Shown here in pieces: positions 9,905 through 30,807 of a DNA stretch of 64,000 nucleotides. The notes below the pieces were generated by a model that ran no database searches, was not told where the DNA came from, and worked only from the letters and a program-made list of their open reading frames with translations. Position numbers and translations under genes: made by a program. Source of the stretch: Escherichia coli (lineage in GTDB: Bacteria; Pseudomonadota; Gammaproteobacteria; Enterobacterales; Enterobacteriaceae); assembly GCF_965641715.1 (NCBI RefSeq), contig NZ_OZ282453.1, one strand, 5' to 3'. Numbering within the stretch: position 1 is the stretch's first letter; each line of letters starts with the position of its first letter.

Positions 9905-10180
9905 ATGAGTATCCGTATCGAGATAAATCATCAGTATGTAGTTACAAGCGATCGCTACCAGTTCATTTTGCAGGAAAAGAAAGTGGCGACTGCTGGAAAA
10001 AATAAAGGTAGCGAATGGCTTGATACTGTCGGGTATTACCCGACGATTCAAAAACTGATTTCTGGTCTGGTACTACATGACCTTTTAAATGGCGGTGCTG
10101 ATAGTTTTGCGGCGTTGGGTGAGCAGGTCGAGCAGTTGGGACTGCAATGTCAGACCGCGTTTTGTGCTGATGGCCGTTGA
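9905..10180 (+). CDS. Hypothetical early protein (P2 orf81/82-position)
   Basis: ORF only; position, RBS aaggagac upstream. Confidence 0.4.
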   Translation: MSIRIEINHQYVVTSDRYQFILQEKKVATAGKNKGSEWLDTVGYYPTIQKLISGLVLHDLLNGGADSFAALGEQVEQLGLQCQTAFCADGR

Positions 10181-12461
10181 GACTCGGGGGCGTATTGCCC
10201 CCTCGCTAGCCCTGCCAATATCTAAGCGCACCGGCGATACTTTCGTTGGTGCTTATCCCTGGAATGCTCCCCGCGCTGCCATTGGCCGTGACAGACCCCT
10301 TACACGTGCCGAATTCCGTCAGGTGCAAGGTGTTTTATACCGGATTGACCGCCTGCCTTTCTTTCTTAAGACGTTGTTTACTTCCCGTTATAACTTCATT
10401 CGTCGCACAAAGAGCCCGCCCGGGGCGCTCTATTTCCTGAAAAACACCTTTGAGCGGAAGCTGTTGCCGCGTCTTGAGCGCGTTAACGAGCTGTGCGGGA
10501 TGAATGAATCTGCGTCGATTGGTTTCTTGTCTGAGCGTGACGAATATGCGCGCTTGCCTGATATGAATGACAAAGAGCTGAAAAAATTTGCGGCCAGAAT
10601 TGCCGCGCAGCTCTGGCGTAAATACGAGGAACTCAGCGACGAATGGGCTGAGGCATTCGGCGGTAAAGAGACCCTTTTCACCGATGAGGCGCAGGTGCAC
10701 ATATATGGTCAGGTGGCTGGTGTTGCACGCGCGTTCAACTTAACCCCGCTCTACTGGAAAAAATACCGTAAGGGTCAGATGACGATCCGCATGGCGTTTT
10801 CCGCTATTTCCCGTCTGATAAAAGATGATTGGTGGGTTAACCAGCTCAAGGCGCAGCGTATGCGCTGGCGCGAGGCGCTGCTTATCGCTGCCGGTGAAGT
10901 CAACAAAGACCGTTCACCTTACGCCAGCAAAATGGCGATCCGCGAGGTTCACTCGCGCCGGCTGGCTAATCTCGAATACCTGAAATCCTGTGAGCTGGAA
11001 AACAAAGTTACCGGCGAACGTATCGACCTCATCAGTAAAGTCATGGGGAGTATTTCAAACCCTGAAATACGCCGTATGGAGCTGATGAACACCATTGCCG
11101 GAATTGAACGCTATGCGGCCAGCGTTGGTGATGTGGGAATGTTTATCACGCTGACCACGCCGTCGAAGTATCACCCGACCCGACAGGTCGGCAAAGGTGA
11201 CAGCAAAACGGTGCAGCTCAATCACGGCTGGAACGAAACCGCATTCACCCCTAAAAACGGCCAGCGCTATCTGTGCCGAATCTGGAGCCTGATGCGTACC
11301 GCTTTCAAAGATAACGATTTGGAAGTGTATGGGATGCGCGTTGTCGAGCCGCACCACGACGGCACGCCACACTGGCATATGATGCTTTTTTGCAAACTCA
11401 GTCAGCGTAAAGCTATCAACGAAATTATGCGTCGTTATGCCCTCAAAGAGGACGGACACGAAAAGGGCGCGGCAAAACAGCGCTTTGAGTCGCGTCACCT
11501 TAATCAGGGGGGCGCGGCGGGTTATATCGCCAAATACATTGCCAAAAATATCGACGGCTACGCGCTTGACGGTCAGCTCGATCACGATACCGGCAAATCT
11601 CTGAAAGATACGGCCGCAGCCGTAACCGCATGGGCGTCTACATGGCGTATCCCTCAGTTTAAACCGATTGGCCTCCCGACAATGGGCGCTTACCGCGAAC
11701 TGCGTAAGCTGCCGCGCGGGGTGAGTATCGCCAGCGAGTTTGACGACCGTGTCGAGGCCGTCCGGGCTGCTGCAGATGAGGGGGAATTTGACCTGTACAT
11801 CAGCGCGCAGGGTGGGGCAAACATGCCGCGTGATGCTCAGGCGGTCAGGGTCGCCCGTAAGGTGACGGATGAGGTAAACGAATACGAGGAGGATATCGAG
11901 AAAGTGGTCGGTATTTATGCCCCTCATCTTGGGGTGAGCCGCGTACATGTAACCCGTACAGCGGAATGGCGCATAGTTCCAAAGGTTTTGGCCGTTGAGC
12001 CTTTGACCTTAAAAAGCGGCTCTGCCGCGCCTCGGAGTCCTGTCAATAACTGTGGAAAGCTTGCCGACGGTGGCGATCCAGTTATGACACCTACACCGTC
12101 TGAGCAAGCCGCAGCGGTGTTAAATCTGATTGAGGCCGGGGTTATCGGCTGGAATGAGCCAGACGTCATGAAGGTTCTTAACGGCGCGTTAAAAGCTGGC
12201 GCACCTCGCAATAATCGCCAGCAAAGAAGCAATGCGCCACTCAAAACGAGCGAGCAAGCTCCATCAGCCAGGATGACAACACCAGAAAGGGATCGCGTGG
12301 CGAAAATTCGTTTCGATTTGGCTCAGGAGGGCATTACCCCAGAACGGTGGGCGCTCGAAGCGCTGGCGCGTGGGGCAACGGTGATTTATGGCGATAAAAA
12401 AATCAAATACGCGGCTGCTGATGAGTGGCCGGGATTCTCAATTCAAGAGGAGCAGAATTAA
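10170..12461 (+). CDS. P2 gpA rolling-circle replication initiation endonuclease (~763 aa)
   Basis: Extensive identity to remembered P2 A; start placed at MAVETRG rather than the upstream extension. Confidence 0.9.
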   Translation: MAVETRGRIAPSLALPISKRTGDTFVGAYPWNAPRAAIGRDRPLTRAEFRQVQGVLYRIDRLPFFLKTLFTSRYNFIRRTKSPPGALYFLKNTFERKLLPRLERVNELCGMNESASIGFLSERDEYARLPDMNDKELKKFAARIAAQLWRKYEELSDEWAEAFGGKETLFTDEAQVHIYGQVAGVARAFNLTPLYWKKYRKGQMTIRMAFSAISRLIKDDWWVNQLKAQRMRWREALLIAAGEVNKDRSPYASKMAIREVHSRRLANLEYLKSCELENKVTGERIDLISKVMGSISNPEIRRMELMNTIAGIERYAASVGDVGMFITLTTPSKYHPTRQVGKGDSKTVQLNHGWNETAFTPKNGQRYLCRIWSLMRTAFKDNDLEVYGMRVVEPHHDGTPHWHMMLFCKLSQRKAINEIMRRYALKEDGHEKGAAKQRFESRHLNQGGAAGYIAKYIAKNIDGYALDGQLDHDTGKSLKDTAAAVTAWASTWRIPQFKPIGLPTMGAYRELRKLPRGVSIASEFDDRVEAVRAAADEGEFDLYISAQGGANMPRDAQAVRVARKVTDEVNEYEEDIEKVVGIYAPHLGVSRVHVTRTAEWRIVPKVLAVEPLTLKSGSAAPRSPVNNCGKLADGGDPVMTPTPSEQAAAVLNLIEAGVIGWNEPDVMKVLNGALKAGAPRNNRQQRSNAPLKTSEQAPSARMTTPERDRVAKIRFDLAQEGITPERWALEALARGATVIYGDKKIKYAAADEWPGFSIQEEQN

Positions 12462-12925
12462 TGAGCAAAATCCATGAGTTAAAAATTGCACCTGAGTATT
12501 TTAACTCTGTGATATCTCAGGAAAAACGTGCTGAATTTCGTCTCAATGACCGCGATTATTCTAGCGGTGATATTCTCGGGTTGCATGAATGGGAACCGGT
12601 AAACAGATATACCGGGAAACGTGTATCAGTGAGGGTGACAAACGTTACGGATTTATCTGAATGGGCGGAAAATTATGTGATGCTGAGTTTTCAGTTAATG
12701 ATGCCAGATGTCCAGTGCGGTATGTCCCTAATGAACTGGAAAGAGTTAAGCGAGAAGGGGCTTGTTTTCAGAGTTAATCACGAAATTCTACACCCGTTAG
12801 GGCTGGCTATTAGATATGAAACACTTAACAGCGTTTCTGGTAGGGCTTACATCGCTGATGATGGTGTCTGGCAATATTCCGACAAGTTGGTCGCAGATGC
12901 TAAAAAAAATGGGTGGTTAAAATGA
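12461..12925 (+). CDS. DUF3850-like (ASCH/PUA-like) protein, 154 aa
   Basis: N-terminal HELKIAPEYF...EFRLNDRDY..GDIL motif; ATG overlaps gpA stop (TAATG). Confidence 0.5.
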   Translation: MSKIHELKIAPEYFNSVISQEKRAEFRLNDRDYSSGDILGLHEWEPVNRYTGKRVSVRVTNVTDLSEWAENYVMLSFQLMMPDVQCGMSLMNWKELSEKGLVFRVNHEILHPLGLAIRYETLNSVSGRAYIADDGVWQYSDKLVADAKKNGWLK

Positions 12926-13161
12926 GTCATATGCGAATGATGCCAGTGCCGCCGATACATTCAACGCAAAACATTAAGCTGATGGCCGTCGTACATCGCC
13001 TGCAACAAATTATGATTAACGAGAATCTGACCCCTGACGAACTGGTCGGGTGTGCCGGTGTCGTCCGGGATAATCACCGCAAATACAGCGATATCAGCAA
13101 TCCGAAAATTGAGGCGTTTCGGCCACCAAATATGGCAAAGCCACCACCGCGTCGACCATAG
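12913..13161 (+). CDS. Hypothetical small protein (82 aa)
   Basis: ORF only, proline-rich basic C-terminus. Confidence 0.3.
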   Translation: MVKMSHMRMMPVPPIHSTQNIKLMAVVHRLQQIMINENLTPDELVGCAGVVRDNHRKYSDISNPKIEAFRPPNMAKPPPRRP

Positions 13162-13443
13162 CAAACGCCGCCGGTGCTGAAACTTGTTTTCAGTGCCAGC
13201 GGTGTTGAGCAACGAGCCCCGCGAGACGTTAGCCTGCACCGTAGAGACCACCCCCAACCGGCACGATTAAAGTCGGTTTTATTATGCAATTTTCCCACAA
13301 TTTCCCGGTTTTTTAGCCGTGCATGCAACAGGTGCATTTTTTTGCATACGTTGGGGATGCCTGTTCTGGCCGCGCGCCGCCAGAGCAGGCGCGGATCCAG
13401 AGTGGTCATGCAACTGCATTAAAAACGACCCATAAAGCGGGCA

Positions 13444-13462
13444 GGCGAGGCGGGGTAAGCGT
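13444..13462. other. cos-like 19-mer ggcgaggcggggtaagcgt (first 12 nt match the P2 cohesive-end sequence as recalled)
   Basis: Partial match to remembered P2 cos GGCGAGGCGGGGAAAGCAC; location between A region and Q is as expected. Confidence 0.3.
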
Positions 13463-13533
13463 TGCGCGCGCCTGTCAAAGATATTAAGATTGTCTCAAAA
13501 TCGATTGATTTTATTGAACTAATGGAGCTAGGA

Positions 13534-15090
13534 ATGATTAAGGGTATAGGTCTTCAAAACTTCAGGAGCTTTGTCAACAAAACGTTTATTGATTTAAAAC
13601 CAATTACAGTATTTGTTGGTAAGAACAGCAGTGGTAAAAGTTCCCTATTGCGCACATTTCCTTTACTTCGTCAATCTGTAGAAGAAAATACTACTGGCCC
13701 AATACTATGGTATGGGAGATATGTGGATTTTGGCGATTTTACAGATGTACTTTCCCGAAACTCTGAAAAAAAAGAAATTACGTTTAGTTTTTCACTCTCA
13801 ATTCCGCCAGAGGTTTCACAAAGATATACATATTATCGTTCTACTGATTTAGCAAAGCAACCAACAGATATTGAAGCAGAGTTAACTGTTTACTCTAAAG
13901 ATAAAAAAACAAAAACGAAAACGATTAAGCTTATATTGGCTGATTTAACAATATTTATTTCAATGGATGAGAGTAGTAATGTTAAATTACTCATTGAATC
14001 AGATGATAAAACAATAGAGCGTGATGGGATAATAGCTAAAAATCTTGGGCAGTTCATACCAAATCTAATTTTGAAGGGTAAGGAAGACAGTCCTCCTCCA
14101 AGCACATCATTCTATTTGAGACATTCTAGGCATGACAGGGCGTTAGAATTGTCATTTATTGATTCAGCGGCGAAATATATAAAGAAATATTTCCATACTA
14201 AATCTGATATAAATCAAGTGACAGAGGCATTCAAAAGAATTGGCTTTATACCCAAAGCGTACGCTAGTAAATTAGTTGCTTTTCTATTTAAGGAACAAAA
14301 AGTTTTTAGTAGAAACTTTGAATTTCAACATGATGAAATAATGAATGAGTTATATCCATTTATAATTGGATGGAATATTAATAATCTTATAGATATAATA
14401 AATACATCCTTGTCAGATTCATTCAGAAATGTAAAGTACATAGCTCCACTGCGTGCTACATCAGAAAGATTTTATCGTTTTCAAGATTTACAGGTTAATG
14501 AGATAGATCATACTGGTTCCAATCTTGCAATGCTTTTGAATTCATTAAGACCGGCTGATAAATCAAAATTTGAAGATTGGACAAAGTTAAATTTTGATTT
14601 CATTATCAAGGTTGAACAAAGTGGCTCTCACTTTGCAATTTTAATAAACACCGGTGAAAATAGTGAGAACTATAATGTTAGTGATATGGGGTTTGGTTAT
14701 TCTCAGGTTTTGCCGATAGTTACAGCCATTTGGCTTGAGACAGAACGTCGTGCTACCACGGTTAGAAAACCTATAACATTTATCATTGAGCAGCCAGAAT
14801 TGCATTTACATCCGTCATATCAGCATAATTTAGCAAGTATTTTTGCAAAAGTAGTAACTAAAGCAAAAGAAAATAATGTAGATTTGAAGATAATTTTTGA
14901 GACACATAGCCAGACCATGATTGAAGCACTTGGTGAATATATTGAGGAAAATGAAAGTCTTTCACAGGATGATATTTCAATACTGGTATTTGAAAAAGAT
15001 GATAAGCAGCAGACTATAGTTAAGAAATCTTATTTTGACGAGAATGGTTTCCTAAAAAATTGGCCGGTTGGCTTTTTCTCGGGTAAGTAG
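13534..15090 (+). CDS. OLD/AAA_21-like ABC ATPase (518 aa), first gene of cargo operon
   Basis: Start MIKGIGLQNFRSF with GGAG RBS; Walker A GKNSSGKSS (13618..13644); Walker B-like FIIEQPELHLHP (14779..14814); FETHS H-loop; AT-rich. Confidence 0.8.
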   Translation: MIKGIGLQNFRSFVNKTFIDLKPITVFVGKNSSGKSSLLRTFPLLRQSVEENTTGPILWYGRYVDFGDFTDVLSRNSEKKEITFSFSLSIPPEVSQRYTYYRSTDLAKQPTDIEAELTVYSKDKKTKTKTIKLILADLTIFISMDESSNVKLLIESDDKTIERDGIIAKNLGQFIPNLILKGKEDSPPPSTSFYLRHSRHDRALELSFIDSAAKYIKKYFHTKSDINQVTEAFKRIGFIPKAYASKLVAFLFKEQKVFSRNFEFQHDEIMNELYPFIIGWNINNLIDIINTSLSDSFRNVKYIAPLRATSERFYRFQDLQVNEIDHTGSNLAMLLNSLRPADKSKFEDWTKLNFDFIIKVEQSGSHFAILINTGENSENYNVSDMGFGYSQVLPIVTAIWLETERRATTVRKPITFIIEQPELHLHPSYQHNLASIFAKVVTKAKENNVDLKIIFETHSQTMIEALGEYIEENESLSQDDISILVFEKDDKQQTIVKKSYFDENGFLKNWPVGFFSGK

Positions 15091-15092
15091 TT

Positions 15093-16205
15093 ATGTTGAT
15101 TAATATCGAAAATGCGACACCTGAGAAGGTGCTAAATAACTCATTTGCCATAGCGGTTGAAAATATACTTCGGGCATTCGCTGAACAAAAACACTTGGTT
15201 ATAGGGGCAAGGGTTTTTTTTAAAACTATTATCAATGATCAAAGCGGGCTTTATAGCCTTTCATCAAAAAGTTACGCGCAAGAGGCTTTGTCGGGTCTAA
15301 CAGAGTACTATGCTATCTTGGATCAGGTCTCATTTTATGTATCTGTCGACTTTAATATTAGTGATAAATCATTTAAATGGGTTCAGATCGGTGAATCTTT
15401 TAAATTTGTTTGTGGTCCATTGTATTTTAATGACTCGGCACAATTGCAAAAAACGAAAATAGTATGTGAAAATCCTTTGGATTCTGATTTTTTTAAGGTT
15501 ATAGCGGCTCATTATGCCGAAGGTATTAACTTATCTCGCTGCGAAATGGGTTTTATCGCTCTAAATGGCGGTGGGGGCAGTACTAAGGATATATTCGAGC
15601 GTGCAATTCAAAATAATGAGATAGTTTTTTGTATTGTGGATAATGACAAAAAACATCCTGGAGCCCCATTCGGAGGTACTTGCTCACATTTTTTGGGCTC
15701 ACAAATTACTCGCTCAGGTTTCGTGGAGATTTTAGATGTACATGAAATAGAATCTCTAGTTCCTTTATCGACAATTGAAGATGTATTAAGAAGTCAAAGT
15801 CAATTGCAACAAAAAGAAAAATCTCTCATTTTCTTTAAGCATCTTTGCTCCGTAGATGAATCAGTAAAATTTTATATTGACCATAAAAAAGGTTTTGATT
15901 TTAAAACAGCCCTTGAACTCGATCGAAAACATGGTGCATATTGGCGTCCGATATTAAAGAAGCTTGATATAAAATATGATTGTGAGTATATCGAATCAAA
16001 ACGTTGTAGCTGCAACGCTGCTTGTGTAAGTTATGATGGTTTTGGAGAGAATTTGCTCAGCAATACATTGAAATATATACAAAAGGGAAGTTTAAAAAAA
16101 TATAATCCTCACCTAACACCAGTGCTTTCTGATAAATGGTATAAGTTAGGTAAGAATTTCTTTAGTTGGAGTTGTGGTCCATATAAAAAAGCAAGGGTTG
16201 GTTAA
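15093..16205 (+). CDS. Partner protein (370 aa) with Toprim-like signature, possible nuclease effector
   Basis: ATG 2 nt after ATPase stop; YAEG (15519..15524), GGGG, IVDNDKKHP (DND at 15639..15647); C-terminal Cys cluster; AT-rich. Confidence 0.65.
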   Translation: MLINIENATPEKVLNNSFAIAVENILRAFAEQKHLVIGARVFFKTIINDQSGLYSLSSKSYAQEALSGLTEYYAILDQVSFYVSVDFNISDKSFKWVQIGESFKFVCGPLYFNDSAQLQKTKIVCENPLDSDFFKVIAAHYAEGINLSRCEMGFIALNGGGGSTKDIFERAIQNNEIVFCIVDNDKKHPGAPFGGTCSHFLGSQITRSGFVEILDVHEIESLVPLSTIEDVLRSQSQLQQKEKSLIFFKHLCSVDESVKFYIDHKKGFDFKTALELDRKHGAYWRPILKKLDIKYDCEYIESKRCSCNAACVSYDGFGENLLSNTLKYIQKGSLKKYNPHLTPVLSDKWYKLGKNFFSWSCGPYKKARVG

Positions 16206-30229: not shown

Positions 30230-30807
30230 TGACTTTCAAAATGACCGGGAAAAGCCGGACAATCACTGTTTATAACTATCGCGCAGATACCTGTGAATTT
30301 ATTGGAAAAGGTGACGCCCTGATCCCACCATTTACCGGACTCCCTGCCTGTTGTACCAGTGAAAAACCGCCAGAAACCAGCGCGGGATGTATTCCCGTTT
30401 ACGACACTGAAAGCGGACGATGGAACATCACTGAAGACCACAGGGGTGAGGTTGTCTATGACACTGAAACAGGTCATCAGATGGAGATAACCGAACCGGG
30501 TAAATATCCGACAGGGACAACAACCGCTGCACCTGAAAACCCGTGGCAAAAATGGAATGGTAAAGCATGGATTGATGATGCTGATGCAGAACGGAATGCA
30601 TTGACTGAGTCTGCGAAAAACAACAAAAGCATGCTTCTTAAGCAGGCCAATACTGCGGTTGCGACATTACAGGACGCTGTTGATCTGGAGATGGCAACCG
30701 AAGATGAAAAAGCACAGCTCGCGGCATGGAGGAAATACCGTGTTTTACTGAGCCGCATCCAGCCAGAGAATGCCCCGGATATTGAATGGCCGCCGCTGCC
30801 AGTCTGA
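30229..30807 (+). CDS. Tail fibre assembly chaperone (G-like)
   Basis: 192 aa, translationally coupled to H. Confidence 0.75.
   Translation: MTFKMTGKSRTITVYNYRADTCEFIGKGDALIPPFTGLPACCTSEKPPETSAGCIPVYDTESGRWNITEDHRGEVVYDTETGHQMEITEPGKYPTGTTTAAPENPWQKWNGKAWIDDADAERNALTESAKNNKSMLLKQANTAVATLQDAVDLEMATEDEKAQLAAWRKYRVLLSRIQPENAPDIEWPPLPV

Follow-up and report, generated by a model that had tools for sequence, protein, structure and literature searches.

Do the small genes that lie between the replication gene and the cargo of a P2-like prophage belong to the phage, or to the variable cargo beside them? We addressed this question in Escherichia coli (RefSeq assembly GCF_965641715.1, contig NZ_OZ282453.1), of which one stretch of 64,000 nucleotides (nt), hereafter the window, was analyzed. 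The window contains a P2-like prophage in the chromosome beside yegS/yegR, with an immunity region of the P2 C/Cox type. Its genes are ordered as integrase, C-type repressor, Cox, gpB-like gene, DUF2732, DUF5405, gene A, two small open reading frames (ORF1 and ORF2), and a two-gene ATPase cargo; the portal gene Q and terminase lie beyond the cargo on the opposite strand. In a locus 99.9% identical to this one, PGAP names gene A "replication endonuclease", ORF1 "DUF3850 domain-containing protein", and ORF2 "hypothetical protein". We propose that ORF1 and ORF2 together make up a facultative module, the last two genes of the early (replication) operon in P2-like phages. On this view they are accessory genes, dispensable, active in the lytic phase, and encoding products that bind nucleic acid, and they are not defense cargo. 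Our confidence in this proposal as a whole is evenly balanced by our doubt. The safe statement is that the pair is an optional early accessory, not cargo, and not essential to replication.

Coupling of ORF1 and ORF2 to gene A

The 3' end of gene A contains the Shine-Dalgarno sequence of ORF1 (GAGGAG, 12447-12452), 8 nt upstream of the ORF1 start, and the gene A stop codon (TAA, 12459-12461) has one base in common with the ORF1 ATG (TAATG). A reading of the sequence only, made before this analysis, had described a 154-amino-acid (aa) protein with an ASCH/PUA-like DUF3850 N terminus overlapping the gpA stop, and both Pfam and the TAATG junction confirmed this description. DUF3850 (PF12961) was matched at aa 4-77 with an E value of 1.4e-18 (67.2 bits against a cut-off of 22.9), and ASCH was matched with an E value of 5e-6 (27.5 bits against 21.2). 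ORF1 has the PUA-like beta-barrel fold of the DUF3850/ASCH group. A second domain, missed in that first reading, was DUF7415 (PF24187) at aa 91-130 (34.6 bits against a cut-off of 27), with the conserved motif NWKELSxxGLVFRxNHEILHPLGLA...DGVWxYSD...GWLK. PHROG 1812 covers ORF1 end to end (E value 4.5e-51).

The same first reading had called ORF2 an 82-aa, Pro/Arg-rich frame. The composition held, as ORF2 is small, basic (isoelectric point 10.2), and rich in both residues (11 Pro and 7 Arg), but the length probably does not. The 82-aa frame from GTG 12913 is open in the sequence, and PGAP places the start at 12931 for a product of 76 aa. Since ORF2 homologues begin with MSH... or MHR..., and since the ORF1 stop and ORF2 start overlap by 1 or 4 nt in 63 of 75 loci (see below), the real start is likely ATG 12922, in an ATGA overlap with the ORF1 stop, for a product of 79 aa. 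The Shine-Dalgarno sequence for this start (GGGTGG, 12911-12916) is within the ORF1 codons for "NGW". No Pfam family was matched by ORF2; it matched PHROG 11386 with an E value of 1.1e-29. The family comprises 116 protein clusters and has a conserved core, KLMAxVHRLQQIMxNENLTPDELVGCA, with 19 invariant columns in 28 aligned sequences. The ORF2 model is a two-helix hairpin core with disordered tails.

We retrieved 80 IMG/VR loci with an ORF1 alignment, 75 of which have the two-domain ORF1. ORF1 was directly after gpA in 75/75, with junctions ranging from a 22-nt overlap to a gap of 76 nt and a 1-nt overlap in 51. ORF2 followed ORF1 in 71 loci. Read from these junctions, with each Shine-Dalgarno site lying within the preceding coding sequence, gene A, ORF1, and ORF2 are shown to be serially translationally coupled, through TAATG and then ATGA. 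ORF1 identity followed gpA identity: where gpA was 90-100% identical, ORF1 was 60-100% identical (73-100% except in locus L029), and a gpA at 73% was paired with an ORF1 of about 54%. Between ORF2 and Q lay about 0.5 to 5 kb of DNA. Only 2 of the 75 loci carried the cargo seen in the window, and one locus (L010) had no cargo. A consensus scan of 12000-13700 returned no sigma-70-like sites, and no LexA box was found before ORF1 or ORF2. Serial coupling, together with the lack of promoter-like or LexA sites there, suggests that expression would come only from the early promoter. ORF1 and ORF2 would then be made only when that promoter fires, in lytic growth or upon induction, and would be silent in the lysogen.

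Compared to diverged homologues, the ratio of nonsynonymous to synonymous substitution (dN/dS) was 0.10-0.48 (ORF1) and 0.10-0.24 (ORF2), and synonymous sites were close to saturation. By this measure both ORFs are shown to be under purifying selection. Chance ORFs were ruled out by the dN/dS values and family size, and conservation of ORF2 as DNA (a cos or ori element) was ruled out by near-saturated synonymous sites alongside an invariant protein core. A search for structured RNA in 11800-13800 gave a single sub-threshold Rfam match only.

The intact form of P2 orf91 and its optional distribution

The sequence-only reading also took the pair to replace the P2 orf91/tin region, which proved to be wrong for orf91. 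P2 Orf91 (NP_046796; UniProt YO91_BPP2) is also a DUF3850 protein encoded directly downstream of A; in P2, the start of orf91 (30316) lies just ahead of the end of A (30319). ORF1 and the reference P2 Orf91 are 53% identical over aa 1-75 (E value 1.7e-22). Full-length ORF1 matches (aa 1-153, 52-54% identical by tblastn) were found right after gene A in other Peduovirus genomes, among them L-413C, P22H4, P24A7b, 12474II-V, and NC_070904. An ORF2 homologue was just downstream of the match in those genomes, and is unannotated in several of them, including NC_070904. These data indicate that ORF1 is the positional and sequence orthologue of P2 orf91, at full length. Because P2 Orf91 is itself a DUF3850 protein orthologous to ORF1, the pair does not replace it.

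The orf91 of reference P2 (NC_001895; locus L003, 3317-3646) is 96% identical at the nucleotide level to the intact gene of NC_070904 up to P2 nt 30539 (codon ~75), where homology ends, and nothing resembling DUF7415 or ORF2 was found in P2 downstream of that position. The tin-old cassette, which begins there, has displaced the DUF7415 part and ORF2 in reference P2, leaving a truncated orf91; given this truncation, P2 genetics are uninformative on the DUF7415 domain or ORF2. In Wphi, gp91 corresponds to the ORF1 N-domain and gp92 covers parts of the ORF1 C-domain and of ORF2 that are broken up by frameshifts; the Wphi record is thereby split relative to the near-identical NC_070904, in which orf91 and ORF2 are intact. 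PSP3 gp37 belongs to the ORF2 family (67% identity over aa 11-61). Both genes are already known, annotated, and widespread in a textbook phage family, and the finding is largely ordinary; for the P2 specialist, the truncation of the reference orf91 is the only unexpected part.

We searched 5,426 complete E. coli genomes with a query consisting of the P2-type A 3' end, ORF1, and ORF2. The query was matched in 1,439 genomes, with coverage of at least 80% in only 347 (24%), and about 71% of an evenly spaced sample matched the gene A end alone. In 4 of 4 inspected prophages with the gene A end only, cargo came straight after A (retron/reverse transcriptase genes, AAA ATPases, or a methyltransferase with an ATP-binding protein), and one of the 4 kept a frameshifted ORF2 remnant. 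Phage 186 has neither ORF1 nor ORF2. Absence from about three-fourths of the gene-A-end-matching E. coli genomes and from 186 indicates that the pair is not needed for replication. The sequence-only reading, which had assigned the pair to a variable accessory region rather than to replication, was thus right that it is not required. It was not right about the region: the pair is not swapped cargo, but has a fixed position, is coupled to A, diverges with gpA, and is found with many cargos or none. Cargo replacement erodes the module, with breakpoints seen after A, inside ORF1 (as in reference P2), after ORF1, and after ORF2; under our proposal, recombination at the hotspot would do so repeatedly.

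The other end of gene A was also found to vary. In Midge, a 186-like phage, the gene that overlaps the A start encodes DUF3850 only (locus L007, 4001-4282), and a PAPS-reductase-domain gene occupies the slot upstream of A as orf84 of 186 (locus L002, 1744-2748) and in one P2-type E. coli prophage (locus L092, 2005-3012). The slot overlapping the gene A start is another small variable position linked to this gene.

Domains and possible functions

To our knowledge, no DUF3850 protein has a demonstrated activity. A literature search found no paper on DUF7415 and no functional study of phage DUF3850/ASCH members. The conserved ASCH octapeptide is G-x-K-x-x-[ETS]-x-R (PMC9599836). In ORF1 it reads QEKRAEFR (aa 20-27): K22, E25, and R27 are retained, but this allele has Q where the octapeptide, like the family consensus GEKRAEFR, has G. 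N4-acylcytidine amidohydrolases of the YqfB type have a Lys21-Thr24-Glu74 triad, and the position of the Thr nucleophile is Glu in ORF1. An activity of the YqfB type is therefore unsupported.

Both domains are frequent outside this locus. For DUF3850 there were 5,805 clusters at 50% identity (E values up to 1e-3); the domain occurred in 1,360 phage records and has been found fused to ParB-CTPase folds in prophages (ParB-CTPase survey). A tblastn search for DUF7415 hit 809 phage records. T4-like (RB43, KP15/KP27) and T5-like phages are among them, and the domain usually occurs there in a small protein encoded in the early region; examples are RB43 ORF184c (85 aa; locus L089, 3007-3264) and STG2 gp044 (136 aa; locus L090, 2315-2725). 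In distant P2-like phages, a DUF7415 protein was directly after the replication initiator, whether of the gpA type or a Toprim/DUF5906 primase-helicase. One natural protein, P0189 (188 aa; locus L088, 2597-3163), has an ORF2-like N terminus (hhalign 92.7%, E value 4e-7), a ClpX-type zinc finger, and DUF7415, and its gene sits between those for a Toprim/DUF5906 primase-helicase and a Gp49-like protein. A second candidate, P0150 (119 aa), combines a Cox N terminus with DUF7415. Because its C-terminal part is nearly identical to P2-type orf91, we read P0150 as a likely deletion chimera of a prophage remnant, with cox to mid-orf91 removed, and drew no functional conclusion from it.

These observations suggest how the proposed module might act. 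The ASCH domain of ORF1 may bind RNA, single-stranded DNA, or a modified base or nucleotide. The DUF7415 domain may cooperate with ORF2, because P0189 fuses an ORF2-like segment to DUF7415. Acting together, they would bring the phage an early benefit during infection that it can do without, for example through host takeover, counter-defense, or modulation of replication. DUF3850 and DUF7415 are among the commoner uncharacterized phage domains, and the P2 system would be a simple setting in which to learn what they do, given an inducible host and a pair that is coupled to A and naturally present or absent.

Several observations weigh against this proposal. PSP3 has ORF2 without ORF1, and 4 loci (L024-L027) have ORF1 without ORF2, so the two are not obligate partners. 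No ORF2-like neighbors of the DUF7415 genes were found in RB43 or STG2, and the P0189 fusion is known from one 3.5-kb metagenomic contig (assembled from the Sequence Read Archive, SRA). Sequence searches linked neither DUF7415 nor ORF2 to a relative with a solved structure, and the structure model of the ORF1 C-domain is weak (predicted local distance difference test score, pLDDT, about 60). The guanine-plus-cytosine (GC) content of ORF1 is 41.9% compared to 54% for gpA, which is compatible with an acquired accessory gene. Finally, the methods of a preprint (bioRxiv 10.1101/2025.08.28.672839) call P2 orf91 "an essential protein" with no reference; this remark is unsupported and hard to reconcile with the absence of the gene from most of the gene-A-end-matching E. 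coli genomes.

Alternatively, ORF1 and ORF2 could assist gpA in replication, for example by binding to the displaced single strand or to the cis-acting A mRNA/ori region, and so improve rolling-circle replication although not strictly required for it. Translational coupling to A and co-divergence with gpA are consistent with such a role, as are the Midge gene at the start of A, the DUF7415 proteins directly after initiators (including Toprim/DUF5906 primase-helicases) in distant P2-like phages, and the prediction that ASCH domains bind nucleic acid (PMC9599836). However, the pair is missing from about three-fourths of the E. coli genomes with the gene A end and from 186, and orf91 is truncated in P2, which is replication-competent. 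DUF7415 also follows two unrelated types of initiator, which favors "end of the early operon" over a partnership specific to gpA, and it is found in the early-gene clusters of T4-like and T5-like phages. We consider this alternative possible but unlikely.

The pair could also be a counter-defense (anti-immune) module, in which the PUA-like pocket sequesters or hydrolyzes a modified nucleotide or RNA of a host defense. Early lytic expression, if it occurs as proposed, would suit this role, as would a dispensable, patchy pair at the edge of the hotspot. The high frequency of both domains in virulent phages is in agreement, PUA-clan folds bind N4-acetylcytidine (ac4C), N6-methyladenosine (m6A), and 5-methylcytosine (5mC), and the authors of the ParB-CTPase survey speculate on anti-defense roles for phage DUF3850 fusions. 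All of this is circumstantial, however; neither protein matched a known anti-defense family, and the Glu in place of the YqfB-type Thr also argues against it. We therefore regard a counter-defense role as doubtful. Its more specific form, in which ORF1 and ORF2 form an early-expressed complex that neutralizes an immune component of the host or a rival phage (a modified nucleotide or RNA) by way of the PUA-like pocket and DUF7415, is speculative and rather improbable. If it were true, DUF7415 would be a new counter-defense module, from an uncharacterized domain of about 800 phage records that include T4-like and T5-like virulent phages.

The right end, the cargo, and known systems

The features of this part of the window are listed in Table 1.

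Table 1. Positions of genes, domains, and sites from gene A to cos in the window.
Feature	Position	Strand	Basis
Gene A (rolling-circle replication endonuclease)	10170..12461	+	Pfam Phage_GPA, E value 5.8e-109; PGAP
ORF1, 154 aa, full-length P2 orf91 orthologue	12461..12925	+	
DUF3850/minimal ASCH (PUA-like) domain, aa 4-77	12470..12691	+	
DUF7415 domain, conserved region aa 88-154	12722..12922	+	Pfam aa 91-130; alignments; tblastn
ORF2, likely 79 aa, basic, Pro-rich, Wphi gp92/PSP3 gp37 family (PHROG 11386)	12922..13161	+	
Long imperfect hairpin immediately 3' of the ORF2 stop	13161..13210	+	RNA fold
Putative counterpart of phage 186 terminator t95b	13256..13283	+	Homology to 186 and 186 annotation
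cos 19-mer GGCGAGGCGGGGTAAGCGT	13444..13462	+	P2 cosR = GGCGAGGCGGGGAAAGCAC

The segment at 13162-13443 of this P2-type (C/Cox) prophage, which runs up to the cos 19-mer, shares homology with the phage 186 right end (nt 30342-30624) and contains the counterpart of t95b. A simple terminator scan did not flag that counterpart; by homology, it would end the rightward early transcript. In the clade of the window, the spacer from ORF2 to cos is fixed at 282 bp and the cargo is inserted between cos and Q. The P2 clade has its cargo between ORF2 and cos, and the distance from cos to Q is nearly fixed at about 188 bp. Mapping the cos 19-mer in the related loci thus resolves the P2 hotspot into two insertion zones, one on either side of cos, used in a clade-specific manner. 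An intermediate clade was also seen in which both zones flanking cos vary.

The cargo of the window (13534-16205, + strand) consists of an AAA_15/AAA_21/DUF3696 ATPase gene and a gene for a 370-aa protein. The best PADLOC matches of the ATPase were NsnB and PDC-M55A, with further matches to AriA, GajA, and Old-like proteins; the 370-aa protein had no Pfam match and a weak match to PDC-M55B (E value 2e-4). Rousset et al. (2022) defined the P2 hotspot as everything between gpA and gpQ, and in their Table S5 "DUF3850/ASCH" precedes many different systems, including "DUF3850/ASCH + AAA_15/AAA_21 + hyp + hyp". WP_001461201, the PGAP accession of ORF1 in the 99.9%-identical locus, is listed in Table S5 with the ATPase arrangement of the window. 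In the parts of that paper covered here, this arrangement is apparently not among the validated systems.

It could be argued from this grouping that ORF1 and ORF2 are variable defense cargo, namely accessory components or regulators co-acquired with the adjacent AAA_15/DUF3696 ATPase and 370-aa protein. The pair is within the gpA-gpQ hotspot, was found in no more than about 24% of those E. coli genomes that match the gene A end, and has in ORF1 a GC content below that of the backbone. However, the pair precedes many unrelated cargos as well as an empty hotspot, and its coupling is to A and not to the cargo. The GC content of the cargo is 33-35%, compared to 42-50% for the pair. PADLOC gave no meaningful match (only PDC-M11B for ORF1, E value 0.0027, and nothing for ORF2), and an NCBIfam search also gave no match. 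The cos and terminator-like sites intervene between the pair and the cargo, which places the two at opposite ends of the packaged genome. We consider membership in the cargo very unlikely. Surveys that take everything from gpA to gpQ count this early-operon pair into their "systems", and we advise that it be masked.

An SOS/antirepressor module equivalent to 186 tum-orf97, in the same slot beside a right end homologous to that of 186 downstream of orf97, is effectively refuted for ORF2 (with or without ORF1), as there is no LexA box or promoter-like site, Pfam finds no DinI domain in either ORF, the immunity region is of the P2 C/Cox type, and the PSP3 homologue of ORF2 coexists with tumA/tumB.

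Compared to known systems, the pair resembles P2 hotspot cargo (old, tin, and PARIS-like ATPase systems; Rousset et al. 2022) in lying inside the gpA-gpQ interval and in being present or absent among related prophages. In contrast to such cargo, ORF1 and ORF2 are coupled to the early operon, have no promoter-like site of their own and no defense-family match, and are independent of cargo identity. Swapping independent of the phage backbone, as expected of cargo, was not seen, although the pair is often deleted. Compared to the minimal ASCH protein EF (PDB 3IUW) and the ASCH/PUA-like superfamily (YqfB, TRIP4, and ZmASCH; EVE and YTH), ORF1 differs by the G-to-Q change in its octapeptide, and compared to YqfB and other members it has the additional DUF7415 domain. 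PSP3 differs in carrying its ORF2 homologue after tumA/tumB. P2 Orf91 shares with ORF1 the position directly after gene A, the stop overlap, the DUF3850 N-domain, and the early-operon strand; the reference P2 Orf91 (109 aa) lacks DUF7415 and P2 lacks ORF2, whereas ORF1 is the intact two-domain form.

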